Numbered from the stretch's first letter, positions 1 through 2,738 are shown. The stretch: 2,923 bases of DNA from a virus (IMGVR_UViG_2703718821_000008), one strand, 5' to 3'. Made by a program: numbers and translations. The notes: generated from the sequence alone by a model not told the origin.

Positions 1-252
1 CATCGCCTTTTCGATCGCCGGTAACAGAGCCTGCATTTTTTCAACAGCATCAGGGGTGTCTTTATCCAGCCAACGGAAAATTTTCTGGGTATTACGGGCC
101 AGGGCTTCCGGATGGCTGTCGTCGTACAGTTCAGGGAACGTCATCCCCAGTTCGAAATAAGTCCGGGCTATTTCAGCTGCGGGAACTTTCTCACCGTCAG
201 GATATGCCCAGGCATTCATCGCCATGCGGATGTGCTCATGCTTGATTTTCAT
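1..252 (-). CDS. YdaT-family protein (prophage CII-like regulator), N-terminal part only; gene runs past the left window edge
   Basis: Reverse complement of 1..252 translates without stops from ATG (252..250) as MKIKHEHIRMAMNAWAYPDGEKVPAAEIARTYFELGMTFPELYDDSHPEALARNTQKIFRWLDKDTPDAVEKMQALLPAIEKAM. Its ATG overlaps the TGA stop of the upstream Cro-like gene (ATGA at 249..252). The MKIKHEHI start and the position next to a cro-like gene match my recollection of the YdaT family; not verified by alignment. Not in the ORF track because it is truncated by the window edge. Confidence 0.6.
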   Translation of the reverse strand, partial: MKIKHEHIRMAMNAWAYPDGEKVPAAEIARTYFELGMTFPELYDDSHPEALARNTQKIFRWLDKDTPDAVEKMQALLPAIEKAM

Positions 253-464
253 GAATCATTCCTCATTTCGTGCGAGGTGTTATTCTTCTTTTTGTACAGC
301 TCTGGGTTGTATTTCAATTCACCACCAGTAATTTCATCCAACTCAATTGCTCGAAGTTTTGGAATAACAGATTTCCACCGAACAACAGCCACGTGTGAAA
401 TTCCCAGAGCCTCTGCTACTAGCCGCTTTTTTTTGAAATAGCGTAGGACATCATCTTTAAACAT
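249..464 (-). CDS. Cro/DicC/YdaS-family small HTH DNA-binding protein (cro analog), 71 aa
   Basis: Minus-strand ORF (track 249..500). I place the start at the internal ATG 464..462 (MFKDDVLRYFKKKRLVAEALGISHVAVVRWK...), which has a G-rich Shine-Dalgarno (GGGGG, plus coords about 471..475) 6 nt upstream. The track start at 500 is a TTG lying inside an operator palindrome. The HTH-like segment is RLVAEALGISHVAVVRWK. The gene is divergent from the repressor gene. Confidence 0.7.
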   Translation of the reverse strand: MFKDDVLRYFKKKRLVAEALGISHVAVVRWKSVIPKLRAIELDEITGGELKYNPELYKKKNNTSHEMRNDS

Positions 465-493
465 AAATTCCCCCTGTAAAACCGAACCTAAAG

Positions 494-507
494 GTAACAA
501 TAGTTAC
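494..507. promoter_or_regulatory. Operator-like palindrome O1 GTAACAATAGTTAC
   Basis: Perfect 5-bp inverted arms GTAAC/GTTAC with a 4-bp spacer. It overlaps the spacer and -10 of the putative cro-like promoter and is immediately followed by the ATG at 508. Confidence 0.6.
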
Positions 508-541
508 ATGATAATGTCAACCATAGTGACATCCATTGGTA

Positions 542-555
542 GTAACATTGGTTAC
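542..555. promoter_or_regulatory. Operator-like palindrome O2 GTAACATTGGTTAC
   Basis: Same GTAAC-N4-GTTAC architecture as O1. It is immediately followed by the ATG at 556 and contains a -10-like TAACAT (543..548) about 7 nt upstream of that ATG, consistent with a leaderless repressor transcript. Confidence 0.6.
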
Positions 556-1230
556 ATGAACACTACTATTAGCGAACGCATCCGAAAGCGTCGAAGAGAC
601 ATAGGTCTAACCCAACAGCAGGTTGCAAAGGCTATCGGCGTCACCCGTGTATCCGTAACAAAGTGGGAAAATGGTTCAACAAAACCGGACGGTGAGAATT
701 TACATCTGCTGTCAAAACTGTTTTCCAAATCACCTGAATGGATTCTTTATGGGAAAGATATTCACGATCAAGTCGATGATTTGCGATTGAATCAACTCCC
801 CTACCTTAGTGACAACATCACCCGGTTGCCCGTTTTAACGTGGGAACAGGCTGGTTACTGGGATATGAGCTACCCAGTAACCGAAATCCCTGGTATTAAG
901 AATTGGGTTGATGTCATGACAAAAACATCTGAAAACTCTTTTTTATTGCGCGTTGAGGGAGATTCAATGACAAACTCTAACGGTTTGCCAACGATCCCCG
1001 ACGGCTCCACGGTGTTGATCACTCCATGCTCTGGCAACATTGGGGAGATGGCGGGAAAGATTGTTCTAATCCAACTAGAAGGAATACCAACTGTAACACT
1101 GAAAAAAGTCGCAATTGATGGCCCAAACATCTACCTACTGTCATTAAATCCGCTTTACAAGCCTATAGAACTCAATGGTCGCTACACCATTAAAGGTAAA
1201 GTCTCACAAATCCATCAATACTTAGATTGA
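556..1230 (+). CDS. CI-type prophage repressor: N-terminal XRE-family HTH plus C-terminal S24 (LexA-like) autopeptidase domain; 224 aa (240 aa if started at 508)
   Basis: Track ORF 508..1230. The HTH is LTQQQVAKAIGVTRVSVTKWENG (about 607..675). An Ala-Gly candidate cleavage site sits in the linker (EQAGYW; GCT GGT at 850..855). The S24 catalytic serine motif is EGDSM (Ser codon 964..966) and the catalytic lysine is in VTLKKV. Start 556 is preferred over 508 because it gives a normal-length N-terminus before the HTH and leaves a 91-bp divergent control region; neither ATG has a Shine-Dalgarno. Confidence 0.85.
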   Translation: MNTTISERIRKRRRDIGLTQQQVAKAIGVTRVSVTKWENGSTKPDGENLHLLSKLFSKSPEWILYGKDIHDQVDDLRLNQLPYLSDNITRLPVLTWEQAGYWDMSYPVTEIPGIKNWVDVMTKTSENSFLLRVEGDSMTNSNGLPTIPDGSTVLITPCSGNIGEMAGKIVLIQLEGIPTVTLKKVAIDGPNIYLLSLNPLYKPIELNGRYTIKGKVSQIHQYLD

Positions 1231-1496: not shown

Positions 1497-1649
1497 ATGG
1501 ATACGCTCAATCTTGGCAACAACGAATCTCTGGTATGCGGCGTGTTTCCCAACCAGGACGGCACGTTTACCGCGATGACGTATACCAGAAGCAAAACGTT
1601 TAAAACTGAAGCTGGCGCGCGTCGCTGGTTAACCAGAAACACTGACTGA
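1497..1649 (+). CDS. ydfA: Small prophage protein, YdfA/YdaF-like (50 aa)
   Basis: ATG 1497 with GAGG Shine-Dalgarno (1488..1491) 5 nt upstream; translation MDTLNLGNNESLVCGVFPNQDGTFTAMTYTRSKTFKTEAGARRWLTRNTD; stop TGA at 1647..1649. It is not in the supplied ORF track (probably below the length cutoff). It resembles my recollection of the small YdfA (Qin) / YdaF (Rac) proteins that follow the repressor gene; unverified. Confidence 0.65.
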   Translation: MDTLNLGNNESLVCGVFPNQDGTFTAMTYTRSKTFKTEAGARRWLTRNTD

Positions 1650-1660
1650 TGAGGTTGACG

Positions 1661-2035
1661 ATGGAATTTAAAGATTTACCACTACCATTCCAGGAAATGG
1701 CTGCGAATATAGTTCGTTCTCAACTGGCCACTCTTGACCTGAGTACCGTAGAAAAAGAAACCATCGATAATATATCCGGTAACGTACGCCGAGCCTTTAT
1801 CGGGCTGTACGAAGAGAAGCAGCTCTCTGATAACCAGGATTTACATGAAAAATACTTTCTGGAATTAATGGACATCATTAATAAAGGATTTGGCTTGTTA
1901 ATGAAAAAGAAAGGGATTCGAATAGCTCCCCTTGAAAATCATTTTACAGCAAGCAGTATTAACTCCTGTGATTTAAAGCATCACACATCCGATGGGAAAG
2001 TTGAATCAAACAACAAAATATCAATTAATCATTAA
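1661..2035 (+). CDS. Hypothetical protein, 124 aa (128 aa if started at ATG 1649, which overlaps the upstream stop as TGATG)
   Basis: Track ORF 1649..2035. ATG 1661 has a GAGG Shine-Dalgarno (1651..1654) 6 nt upstream; ATG 1649 has none but overlaps the stop of the preceding small ORF. The protein is soluble-looking and acidic/lysine-rich, with no motif I recognise. The last ~40 codons are AT-rich and low-complexity (ending KISINH). Confidence 0.6.
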   Translation: MEFKDLPLPFQEMAANIVRSQLATLDLSTVEKETIDNISGNVRRAFIGLYEEKQLSDNQDLHEKYFLELMDIINKGFGLLMKKKGIRIAPLENHFTASSINSCDLKHHTSDGKVESNNKISINH

Positions 2036-2114
2036 TTTATTCACGGGTGAGGTAGAGCGCGTGCGCCGGACACGGATAAGAATCCGGCACTGACAGTTTA
2101 CTGAAAGAACATAT

Positions 2115-2130
2115 CCCTGAAAAGTCAGGG
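2115..2130 (+). other. Perfect hairpin CCCTGA-AAAG-TCAGGG in the non-coding block
   Basis: 6-bp perfect stem with 4-nt loop. Other hairpins nearby: GCCGGA/TCCGGC (2065..2070 / 2083..2088), AGCGCACG/CGTGCGCT (2142..2149 / 2187..2194), CCGCG/CGCGG (2210..2214 / 2221..2225). Confidence 0.7.
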
Positions 2131-2261
2131 CATAACACGAAAGCGCACGGCGAGAATATAAGGCTTGTCGTTAAATTTAATTCGATCGTGCGCTTCCGGT
2201 TGTGGCAATCCGCGAAATGGCGCGGCGGTAAGTATGGCTGGGGCTTCCTCCATTGCTCCAG

Positions 2262-2281
2262 AAAATGCACCAAAATGCACC
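2262..2281 (+). repeat. Perfect tandem duplication AAAATGCACC x2
   Basis: AAAATGCACC at 2262..2271 is repeated exactly at 2272..2281, inside the non-coding block. Confidence 0.9.
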
Positions 2282-2343
2282 GGGTTGTCAGGTTGACCAT
2301 GCGCCTGAGTGACAACACCGCCACAACAACCTCTGTTATCACT

Positions 2344-2382
2344 TTTCTGGTGATTCGGCGGAAATGGATATCCGCCATTTTT
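2344..2382 (+). ncRNA. dicF: Candidate DicF-like small RNA ending in an intrinsic terminator
   Basis: The sequence TTTCTGGTGATTCGGCGGAAATGGATATCCGCCATTTTT resembles my recollection of the 5' end (UUUCUGGUGA...) and the GGCGG/CCGCC-U-run terminator of E. coli DicF. It sits between the 124-aa ORF and the dicB-like gene, as dicF does in Qin. The downstream sequence AAAGTGTATTTTGTGATGCGGTGAATGCGG also resembles the K-12 dicF-dicB spacer from memory. The exact 5' end is unknown and the candidate is shorter than the 53-nt K-12 DicF. Confidence 0.45.
2357..2382 (+). terminator. Rho-independent terminator (3' end of the DicF-like element)
   Basis: Stem GGCGGA (2357..2362) pairs with TCCGCC (2371..2376), 8-nt loop AATGGATA, followed by ATTTTT (2377..2382). 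Confidence 0.6.
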
Positions 2383-2549
2383 AAAGTGTATTTTGTGATG
2401 CGGTGAATGCGGCTAAGCGCACGCGGAACAGTTAAAGCTAAAAACAGCGTTATGGGTGATTCTGTATTCCGGCGTTAATTGTTAACTGGTTAACGTCACC
2501 TGGAGGCACCAGGCACCACATCACAAAATTCATTGTTGAGGACGCGATA

Positions 2550-2738
2550 ATGGAAACGTCACTACCAAACGTTAATACGTCTGAAGGGTGTTTTAATATT
2601 GGTATTCTGCTCAGTAACCGGGAGTTTACTGAAGATGCCATCAGGATGAGAAAATATGAGCCTTATCTTCTCAATGATAATTCCATTCTCTCCAGAATTG
2701 CCCTTATTAAACTTGGCATTTTCGGAGGGCAGCAGTGA
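2550..2738 (+). CDS. dicB: DicB-family cell-division inhibitor (62 aa)
   Basis: ATG 2550 with GAGGA Shine-Dalgarno (2538..2542) 7 nt upstream. Translation METSLPNVNTSEGCFNIGILLSNREFTEDAIRMRKYEPYLLNDNSILSRIALIKLGIFGGQQ. The N-terminal half (LPNVNTSEGCF.IG...SN..FTEDAI..RK) matches my recollection of E. coli DicB, which is also 62 aa; the C-terminal half diverges. Confidence 0.8.
   Translation: METSLPNVNTSEGCFNIGILLSNREFTEDAIRMRKYEPYLLNDNSILSRIALIKLGIFGGQQ

Follow-up and report, generated by a model that had tools for sequence, protein, structure and literature searches.

A conserved pseudoknotted RNA domain upstream of a DicF-like small RNA in a Qin-type lambdoid prophage

Gene layout and coding status of the block

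The stretch of viral DNA analysed here (the window; 2,923 nucleotides of IMGVR_UViG_2703718821_000008) represents a lambdoid prophage of the Qin (dicBF) type, whose immunity and early-left region it covers. Pfam matches in the window comprise DUF1391, DicB, DUF1482, P22_Cro and an S24 repressor. The P22_Cro-type gene lies on the minus strand at 249..500 and is followed by an HTH and S24-peptidase repressor gene with its own terminator (508..1230), the DUF1391 (ydfA) gene (1497..1649) and a 128-amino-acid ORF without a Pfam family (1649..2035). The stop codon of this ORF directly precedes the block under study (2036..2343, plus strand), the first part of which is a spacer (2036..2064). Downstream of the block lie dicB (2550..2738) and then the DUF1482 (ydfD) gene, and the untranslated stretch between the 128-amino-acid ORF and dicB measures about 515 nt (2036..2549). 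A locus in E. coli JNE170426 is 99.4% identical to the window, and there the operon runs on into an exonuclease gene and then an integrase gene. No N-like ORF is present in the window, and the annotation of the 8-kb locus L002 lists no N-like gene. On balance, we read the block as the part of an early-left operon of the dicBF type that separates the last upstream ORF from DicF and stays untranslated.

Judged by sequence, the block is a homologue of the untranslated ydfC–dicF region in E. coli K-12's Qin prophage. Blastn of the window against the K-12 locus aligns 2042..2654 with 2085..2714 at 80% identity, and the order of elements is that of K-12: a long helix, a structured domain, DicF, a second helix and dicB. 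The neighbours agree as well, with a DUF1391 gene on the upstream side and DicF, dicB and a DUF1482 gene on the downstream side. Homology begins at 2042 within the spacer, a few bases past the upstream stop codon, despite different upstream genes, as K-12 carries ydfB and ydfC where the window has the 128-amino-acid ORF. Homologues of the block are present in 4,157 of 5,426 complete E. coli genomes (about three quarters), mostly at 80–90% identity and in up to seven places per genome.

Comparison of 65 distinct homologues upholds the view of an earlier note on this DNA that the block is non-coding. The four ORFs inside the block are each intact in only 2–9 of the 65, they differ in length among homologues by non-multiples of three and none matches a Pfam family. 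Substitutions fall on the three codon phases at 4.0/3.6/3.7, with no 3-periodicity. By contrast, dicB, used as a control in the same alignment, is intact in 62 of 65 homologues and has phases of 5.8/5.6/10.4, with the third position dominant. A conserved coding gene was looked for at these 65 homologous loci and was not found; a coding gene or pseudogene is thus ruled out by unconserved ORFs, the absence of third-position bias and the lack of any Pfam match. In some genomes, PGAP places short 'hypothetical protein' genes under the block.

Folding energy agrees with a structured transcript while leaving the strand undecided. The block folds at −104.3 kcal/mol, compared with −92.0 ± 4.8 kcal/mol for shuffled sequences (z = −2.6; none of 100 shuffles as good), and the sub-region 2105..2215 reaches z = −3.8; the minus strand folds equally well (z = −3.1), and 2193..2343, folded as a single sequence, does not outperform its shuffled versions (z = −1.2). 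The strand is instead indicated by base pairing across homologues. G·U pairs are frequent, for example 18 of 55 at alignment pair 26/168, and because these would be A·C on the other strand, the structured RNA belongs to the plus strand. Taken together, the data strongly support the block as non-coding RNA of the plus strand.

Helices and a covarying pseudoknotted domain

A script check located all four stems listed in the earlier note (2065..2088, 2115..2130, 2142..2194 and 2210..2225), together with an exact 10-bp tandem duplication at 2262..2281. Compensatory changes across homologues, which the note had proposed to look for, are present; the best-supported features, namely helices P4 and P1 and the pseudoknot described below, were missing from its list. 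Hairpin 1 (2065..2088; GCCGGA/TCCGGC, 6 bp with a 12-nt loop) is confined to the Qin-like subset of prophages; loci L266 and L313 are carriers. In the few homologues that have it the stem is invariant and the loop variable, with no covariation available, and it may act as a 3′-end stabiliser of the upstream mRNA. Hairpin 2 (2115..2130; CCCUGA-AAAG-UCAGGG) is a perfect 6-bp stem that abuts the long helix. A hairpin is retained at this position in all enteric lineages with differing sequence, including CTCTGA/TCAGAG in locus L036 and the variants GCCTG/CAGGC, CTGG/CCAG and CCTGG/CCAGG.

Immediately 3′ of hairpin 2 is a long interrupted helix of about 20 bp or more (2131..2204), a putative RNase III substrate. 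Its outer part pairs CAUAAC (2131–2136) with GUUGUG (2199–2204) and CG (2138–2139) with CG (2197–2198), and its core pairs AAGCGCACGG (2141–2150) with UCGUGCGCUU (2186–2195), with inner pairs following. The 2142..2194 stem of the earlier note (AGCGCACG/CGTGCGCT) is real, with 8 bp and a 37-nt loop, but it forms merely the core of this larger helix. The two arms are complementary in 54 distinct arm pairs from other loci, although their sequences change by lineage. Compensatory examples include AAGCGCACGG/CCGUGCGCUU, AAGAGCAUUCC/GGAGUGCUCUU in Trabulsiella and GAGAGCACUC/GAGUGCUCUC in locus L051, and among the E. coli arms there are two single mutants (L197 and L204) and a compensated double mutant (L236). 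The enclosed loop ranges from 27 to 126 nt across loci. The GUUGUG segment is common to the 3′ strand of the long helix and to helix P1 of the adjoining domain.

The 3′ half of the block holds a conserved pseudoknotted domain of about 125 nt (module B; 2199..2327, plus strand), supported by pair counts, a covariance model and inverted repeat I17. Helix P1 closes the domain by pairing GUUGUGGC (2199–2206) with GCCACAAC (2320–2327). Helix P2 (2210–2214 with 2221–2225; CCGCG/CGCGG, 5 bp) is the fourth stem of the earlier list, and the domain also contains a conserved junction, CGGUAAG. P3 is a variable hairpin (about 2238–2281), and P4 pairs GUUGUCA (2284–2290) with UGACAAC (2310–2316). Within the P4 loop, CCAUGC (2297–2302) pairs with GUAUGG (2232–2237) to form a 6-bp H-type pseudoknot, flanked by the near-invariant loops GGUUGA (2291–2296) and GCCUGAG (2303–2309; consensus GCCUNAG). 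Pseudoknot variants among homologues include GUAUGG/CCAUAC, GCAUGG/CCAUGC (phage P1), GGCUGG/CCAGCC, GUACGG/CCGUGC, GACUGG/CCAGUC and GCGCGG/CCGUGC.

Covariation strongly supports this domain. Counted over 36 diverse sequences, pairing reaches 98.6% in the pseudoknot and 96.8% in P4. We then aligned 55 distinct sequences with a covariance model built without the pseudoknot, and in this alignment the pseudoknot is 99.3% paired, with three of its six pairs changed on both sides. P4 is 98.4% paired (both-side changes in five of seven pairs), P2 95.0% (five of five) and helix P1 90.8% (six of six). The domain structure as a whole is 94.8% paired, compared with 26–49% in slid controls, and none of 500 shuffles matches it. 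Helix P1 was judged by pair counts because a test of duplex energy against shuffles was too noisy in distant members. Covariance model R1 finds the domain in the window at 2179..2337 with 136 bits (E = 4e-37); scores run from 57 to 157 bits among true members but stay near 22 bits where the loop pattern is matched by chance, and each locus contains exactly one copy. These results strongly support a pseudoknotted domain that folds autonomously and constitutes the long DicF precursor's body.

The second possibility raised in the earlier note, an additional unrecognised structured RNA, is borne out by the covarying domain at 2199..2327. The Rfam/Infernal scan suggested there returns no family over 2036..2343: with Rfam 15 at E ≤ 1, the sole match in the window is a sub-threshold STnc100 at 2375..2582. 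Likewise, no Rfam 15 family covers the domain in the K-12, phage P1, Salmonella phage F1055, Trabulsiella or Erwinia loci. Keyword and sequence-string searches of the literature, a scope to which Faubladier 1990 and 1994, Lobocka 2004 and Murashko 2017 do not belong, returned no description of the fold. A tRNA-like element was rejected, with no ARAGORN genes in the window and no Rfam tRNA or tmRNA match over the domain.

The 10-bp duplication (AAAATGCACC twice; 2262..2271 = 2272..2281) lies on the 3′ side of P3 and is absent from JNE170426 and the other aligned homologues; it is a strain-specific, recent slip in a variable loop, without general significance. Both P3 of the window (CCAGAAAA) and hairpin 2 are complementary to the DicF seed, but neither K-12 nor loci carrying other seeds preserve this, and we therefore take it as chance.

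Beyond the domain, a single-stranded A/U-rich linker (AACCUCUGUUAUCACU; 2328..2343) closes the block at a position homologous to a K-12 RNase E site. It leads into a DicF-like small RNA (2344..2382, plus strand) that has the K-12 seed UUUCUGGUGA and a terminator, GGCGGA/UCCGCC (2357–2376) followed by AUUUUU, which is shorter than that of K-12. The Rfam DicF model (RF00039; gathering threshold 48 bits) gives no match in the window at E ≤ 1, whereas K-12 DicF scores 76.7 bits. Past this RNA, a second long-range helix on the plus strand pairs 2387–2405 with 2514–2532 (19 nt, 89% complementary) and encloses an STnc100-like stretch that scores 34.2 bits, below the gathering score of 47. The unit of domain plus DicF is thus bracketed by two long helices. 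STnc100 (RF02076) is a helix-enclosed neighbour in the same untranslated stretch and has no overlap with the domain.

Distribution of the domain among phages

Loci from Trabulsiella and Erwinia align with the window only over about 2188..2328, limits that mark the stretch just upstream of DicF as the most widely conserved part. Further copies were sought by pattern scans of viral and metagenomic collections and by BLAST against phages and plasmids, and the domain copies include phage P1 and 479 mostly P1-like plasmids. A pattern scan of genome contigs returned mostly chance 18-mer matches in unrelated bacteria; the real matches were loci from Escherichia, Trabulsiella and Erwinia and two contigs of metagenome-assembled genomes (L023 and L025) with E. 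coli-like sequence.

The setting of the domain differs between phages. In phage P1 it starts about 35 nt past the C1-controlled Pban start and is followed by a terminator within the annotated 'dicF-like region' and then by tRNA genes, tciABC and ban; the closing helix P1 and the RNase III helix upstream are both missing from phage P1. Phage cdtI has, in order, cI, a terminator, a near-consensus pL (11 of 12 matches), a leader, a hairpin with a long helix and the domain, then a DicF-like RNA whose strong terminator has a stem of about 11 bp, a second long helix and the first ORF. Every early-left gene of cdtI therefore lies behind the terminator, and the domain and DicF-like RNA are bracketed by two helices as in the window. 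Among distant metagenomic members, which occupy early regions of phages, the domain follows an S24 repressor and precedes a Bro-N-like gene (L233), lies between a single-strand-binding-like gene and a tRNA (L247) or follows a tRNA and precedes a terminator (L256). In L227 and L269 the order is a promoter-like sequence, the domain, a terminator-like site and a gene. Distant metagenomic members have closing helices of their own, such as CUCGGCUG/CAGCCGAG in L216 and GCGGGC/GCCCGC in L227, and a 12-bp closing helix, CACACGCAAGGC/GCCUUGCGUGUG, is present in L206 and L233.

A terminator-like site lies no more than 125 nt downstream in 93% of 208 distinct domain instances, compared with 19% of random positions. 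In enteric phages, the same domain stands ahead of short terminator-ended RNAs of at least 12 kinds, which differ in their seed segments, and the domain is more conserved than the seeds that adjoin it. The most distant members (L202/L216, L233, L220 and L313) have no obvious terminator-ended RNA downstream, indicating that the domain can exist without a DicF-like partner.

Proposed processing of the precursor and possible roles of the domain

The processing role of the homologous region in K-12 is already known. K-12 DicF is excised from a polycistronic RNA, and no internal promoter was found (PMC10448788). A 190-nt DicF species is lost without RNase III and builds up on RNase E inactivation (PMC10448788); its 5′ end comes from RNase III, whereas the 53-nt DicF requires RNase E, which makes its 5′ end (PMC10448788; PMC5069750). 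A 72-nt species has an RNase III-cut 3′ end (PMC5069750), and ydfA mRNA bands are undetected in an rnc mutant (PMC10448788). The precursor region goes back to Faubladier et al. 1990, and in that work as summarised in PMC5069750 and PMC10448788 the precursor is a band with a 5′ end, with no description of a pseudoknotted fold or of a spread beyond DicF loci. The fold, its covariation, its absence from Rfam and its spread to phage P1 and distant phages ahead of many small RNAs are new.

Both processing positions were transferred from K-12 to the window by alignment. Counting 190 nt back from the K-12 DicF 3′ end reaches about 1649245–1649250, corresponding to window positions of about 2190..2199 with an uncertainty of a few nucleotides, and the K-12 RNase III cut would thus fall on the 3′ strand of the 2142..2194 stem and its long helix, inside about 20 bp of pairing and about 137 nt upstream of DicF. 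Such a position, on the 3′ strand of a helix about two turns long, matches the appearance of an RNase III site. The alignment likewise places the end of the block (2343) at the position homologous to the RNase E cut (K-12 dicF start, 1649382), and homology would place in the second helix the RNase III cut from which the 72-nt DicF gets its 3′ end. The K-12 dicBF precursor and the window would therefore share their RNase III and RNase E positions, while differing in the length of the DicF terminator and in P3, which in the window is a different variant that includes the 10-bp duplication. The earlier reading of the block as a processed segment of a polycistronic RNA thereby gains support from K-12 homology and from the 190-nt and RNase E positions.

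This arrangement recalls systems in which RNase III helices flank an excised RNA, including the lambda N leader (boxB, then a large RNase III hairpin), the T7 early intergenic sites and the rRNA stalks. As at those sites, the early-left transcript has in the block a small hairpin and then an irregular long helix of about two turns, and cleavage would be expected to leave a 3′ hairpin on the upstream mRNA. The lambda N leader leads to the N gene, whereas the block leads to a structured non-coding domain with no N gene. Homology to the lambda N leader was rejected: despite a likeness by eye at words such as CGUAAGU and AGGAC, local alignment is no better than shuffles (z ≤ 1.3), and model R1 finds nothing in that leader. 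The lambda nut/rrn boxA (CGCUCUUA) has seven matches in the window at three mismatches against 4.5 expected, no excess over chance, and none of them in the block, and hairpin 2 is not a boxB, having an AAAG tetraloop and not a GNRA-like pentaloop. A boxA-like UGCUCUUU occurs only in the Salmonella, Trabulsiella and Erwinia versions, where it is buried in a helix.

Phage P1 C4, P4 CI and IsrK (RF01695 and RF01394) are likewise small structured RNAs cut from phage early transcripts by host RNases, and in locus L022 DicF, IsrK and C4 stand in one non-coding array. Their folds are unrelated to that of the domain, C4 being a long stem with two internal hairpins and IsrK three hairpins. Nearby targets of the P4 CI/P1 C4 kind (a1/b1, seqA/seqC) were also sought and rejected, as the strongest pairings of the P4 loop within ±1.5 kb change in place and sequence from locus to locus.

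We propose that the block is probably a processing cassette in a plus-strand polycistronic RNA; the cleavages were demonstrated in the K-12 homologue, and their placement on the helix and linker of the window is inferred from the alignment together with the length of 190 nt. The RNase III substrate would consist of hairpin 2 and the helix at 2131..2204, and the cut would part the upstream mRNA from the downstream RNA, leaving hairpins 1 and 2 at the end of the former. The absence of ydfA mRNA in the rnc mutant fits an RNase III cut that leaves a protective 3′ hairpin. The same cut would strip the 5′ strand from the long helix and free GUUGUGGC (2199..2206) to pair with GCCACAAC (2320..2327). 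Closure of helix P1 would then complete a compact domain around the H-type pseudoknot as the body of the precursor of about 190 nt, and RNase E would cut the A/U-rich linker 3′ of the domain (about 2343/2344) to release the DicF-like small RNA.

What the domain itself contributes is more tentative. Our best guess, offered with well under even confidence, is that it is the constant 'pro-domain' of DicF-type precursors and serves maturation and stability: the precursor would be stabilised by it and the linker offered to RNase E, on behalf of terminator-ended small RNAs with varied seeds. We favour this role because the arrangement is one of constant domain, variable seed and terminator. The near-invariant loops and the pseudoknot nevertheless suggest a specific partner, such as a protein, RNA polymerase or a ligand, which is more than a spacer or pro-domain would need.

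The domain could instead be a cis-acting transcription element, a reading we regard as unlikely. It would be a polymerase-modifying antiterminator RNA comparable to HK022 put, or a ligand- or protein-sensing leader, and would set read-through of the DicF-type terminator and hence the ratio of small RNA to downstream gene, governing dicB and the recombination genes here, tRNAs and ban in phage P1, and possibly lambdoid phages without N more generally. Several features point this way: unpaired loops that hardly vary, within an H-type pseudoknot, are what binding pockets typically show, the annotation of locus L002 includes no N-like gene, and the early-left genes of cdtI, the tRNAs, tciABC and ban of phage P1, and the genes of L227 and L269 all lie beyond a terminator or terminator-like site that follows the domain. 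As with put RNAs, the domain is a structured RNA encoded by a phage that has no recognisable N; it lies in an early operon ahead of intrinsic terminators, and in phage P1 and cdtI it occupies the promoter-proximal leader. The put RNAs suppress terminators that lie downstream by contacting the zinc-binding domain of the RNA polymerase β′ subunit. A put-type RNA was rejected, however, on architecture and copy number, since put is about 70 nt with two stems, no pseudoknot and two copies per phage (putL and putR of HK022, at pL and pR), whereas the domain spans about 125 nt with three to four helices and a pseudoknot and occurs once per locus or phage record, with none on the pR side; model R1 also finds nothing in the fetched HK022 region. 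For a riboswitch, aptamer-like conservation and the frequency of nearby terminators stand against the lack of any conserved alternative pairing between domain and terminator stem that could serve as an expression platform, and against the absence of helix P1 from phage P1. Further counter-evidence comes from the window, where over 850 nt separate the domain from the presumed pL, from the bracketing RNase III helices, which argue that the RNA product matters, and from the distant members with no nearby terminator.

Quite improbable, in our estimate, is a trans-acting stable RNA of about 140–150 nt, freed by the nucleases RNase III and E, that binds a host or phage factor (for example as a decoy, sponge or anti-defence RNA) and for which the DicF-like RNAs are mere co-transcribed neighbours. 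The K-12 cuts would release the domain as a discrete piece, and its autonomous folding, the lineage-specific closing helices of distant members, a conservation exceeding that of the adjoining seeds, its presence without a DicF-like RNA in distant phages and its place beside tRNA genes in phage P1, L247 and L256 would all suit such a role. Against this, no conserved complementary target occurs within ±1.5 kb, phage P1 is without the closing helix, and the published probes, directed at DicF, give no evidence that the upstream fragment accumulates.

Dense non-specific structure that shields the untranslated stretch from Rho or nucleases, or a decayed-gene remnant, is essentially excluded: about 515 untranslated nucleotides (over which Rho-dependent polarity is expected), the PGAP annotations and the lack of covariation in hairpin 1 would fit it, but compensatory changes keep the helices and pseudoknot across very different phages with loops near-invariant, the ORFs show no conservation, codon periodicity or Pfam match, the covariance model separates members from chance matches, and a single recent clone is excluded by phage P1, cdtI-type, Trabulsiella, Erwinia and metagenomic lineages that differ at most non-core positions.

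Whichever role applies, the domain is a solid candidate for a new phage RNA family. DicF, among the oldest known bacterial small RNAs, has control over cell division and sugar metabolism and, in enterohaemorrhagic E. coli, over virulence as well, and the RNA just upstream of it has so far been treated as a precursor tail. If the domain controls terminator read-through or acts in trans, it would represent a new class of regulatory RNA in phages that are very well studied; as a maturation scaffold, it would give temperate phages a modular way to build and swap regulatory small RNAs.

Rearranged and deleted versions of the structured block

Some homologous IMG/VR and E. coli loci retain the core of the pseudoknotted RNA domain (window 2199..2327; helices P1, P2, variable P3 and P4) together with DicF after loss of the upstream structure. 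In deletion variants among IMG/VR and E. coli loci (L036, L022 and L070), the GCGAAA of the 5′ arm of the long helix (2131..2204) is fused directly to the GCGAAA of P2, and these loci lack both the long helix, a putative RNase III substrate, and the 5′ strand of P1. L022, a prophage of E. coli ECMA0423, carries a non-coding RNA array (2160..3400) in which IsrK (59.6 bits) and C4 antisense RNA (76.7 bits) lie downstream of DicF on the same strand. An insert of about 650 bp in this locus takes the place of hairpin 2 (window 2115..2130), the long helix and the P1 5′ strand; part of it spans from the end of hairpin 1 (window 2065..2088) to about 40 nt or less from the P2 remnant, which is preceded by a different hairpin.

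Related stretches also occur in MT713136.1 (Aeromonas phage AP1; matching window 2372..2559) and PP818812.1 (Actinobacillus phage vB_Apl-pPE4; matching 2372..2559 and ~2208..2337), with 78–94% identity to the E. coli prophage region. This likeness points to contamination or misassembly, or else to recent transfer. Such stretches are unexpected for the stated hosts.

Sequences in and upstream of the long helix

In versions from outside E. coli, (G)UGCUCUUU/UGCUCUCUU precedes GUUGUG in the 3′ arm of the long helix, a combination resembling an rrn/nut boxA next to a G/U-rich box. These boxA-like segments lie in the 3′ arm and in a second helix after the terminator (L014, L026, L029, L051 and L215), and the long-helix region of these versions matches the rrn order of hairpin, boxA-like and boxC-like elements, whereas the window carries GCGCUUCC instead. 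The long helix of Salmonella/Erwinia-type copies has a perfect tRNA T-arm-like sequence, CUGGUUCGAUUCCAG, in its variable loop (1900..1925 in L195, Salmonella phage F1055; also L029, L209 and L203). Separately, tRNA genes adjoin the domain in phage P1, L247 and L256.

In many prophages, hairpin 2 is immediately preceded by a gene start in divergent orientation and by two direct repeats, (U)GUUGGGGAAU (1785..1850 in L195; also L149, L092 and L140), an arrangement suggesting that the RNA cassette of those prophages has an operator or promoter of its own. The window has neither the divergent gene start nor these repeats. It encodes, in place of ydfB/ydfC, a 128-amino-acid open reading frame (1649..2035) that matched no Pfam family and whose start shares one base with the ydfA stop codon (ATGA).

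Pairings around the domain and the DicF-like RNA

The 5′ arm of the long helix contains AAGCGCACG (2141..2149), which has a second copy at 2415..2425; that copy is a perfect complement of CGUGCGCUU (2187..2195) and, separately, of CGCGUGCGC (2058..2066). Because of this complementarity, long-range pairings could enclose the domain and DicF. They are retained in E. coli K-12, a comparison that shows no covariation.

Downstream, a sub-threshold STnc100 match (2375..2582; 34.2 bits versus 47) has as its outer stem a 19-nt long-range helix, 2387–2405 with 2514–2532, that stops about 15 nt upstream of the dicB start. By homology, this helix is probably the RNase III site generating the 72-nt DicF 3′ end. 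Phage P1 has a similar sub-threshold match (L194 3842..3961).

The DicF seed region (UUUUCUGG) is complementary to window-type P3 (CCAGAAAA; 2245..2265 versus 2343..2363) and to hairpin 2 (CCUGAAAAGU; 2116..2125 versus 2341..2350). Both matches are absent in K-12 and in loci with other seeds and are therefore probably due to chance; seed masking by P3 and hairpin 2 could operate in the window's lineage.

The DicF-like RNA itself (2344..2382) retains the K-12 seed, UUUCUGGUGA, and ends in a terminator hairpin of 6 bp with an 8-nt loop, much shorter than that of K-12. The Rfam DicF model, which scores K-12 DicF at 76.7 bits, gave no match to the window's RNA at E ≤ 1, and this variant would escape annotation pipelines.
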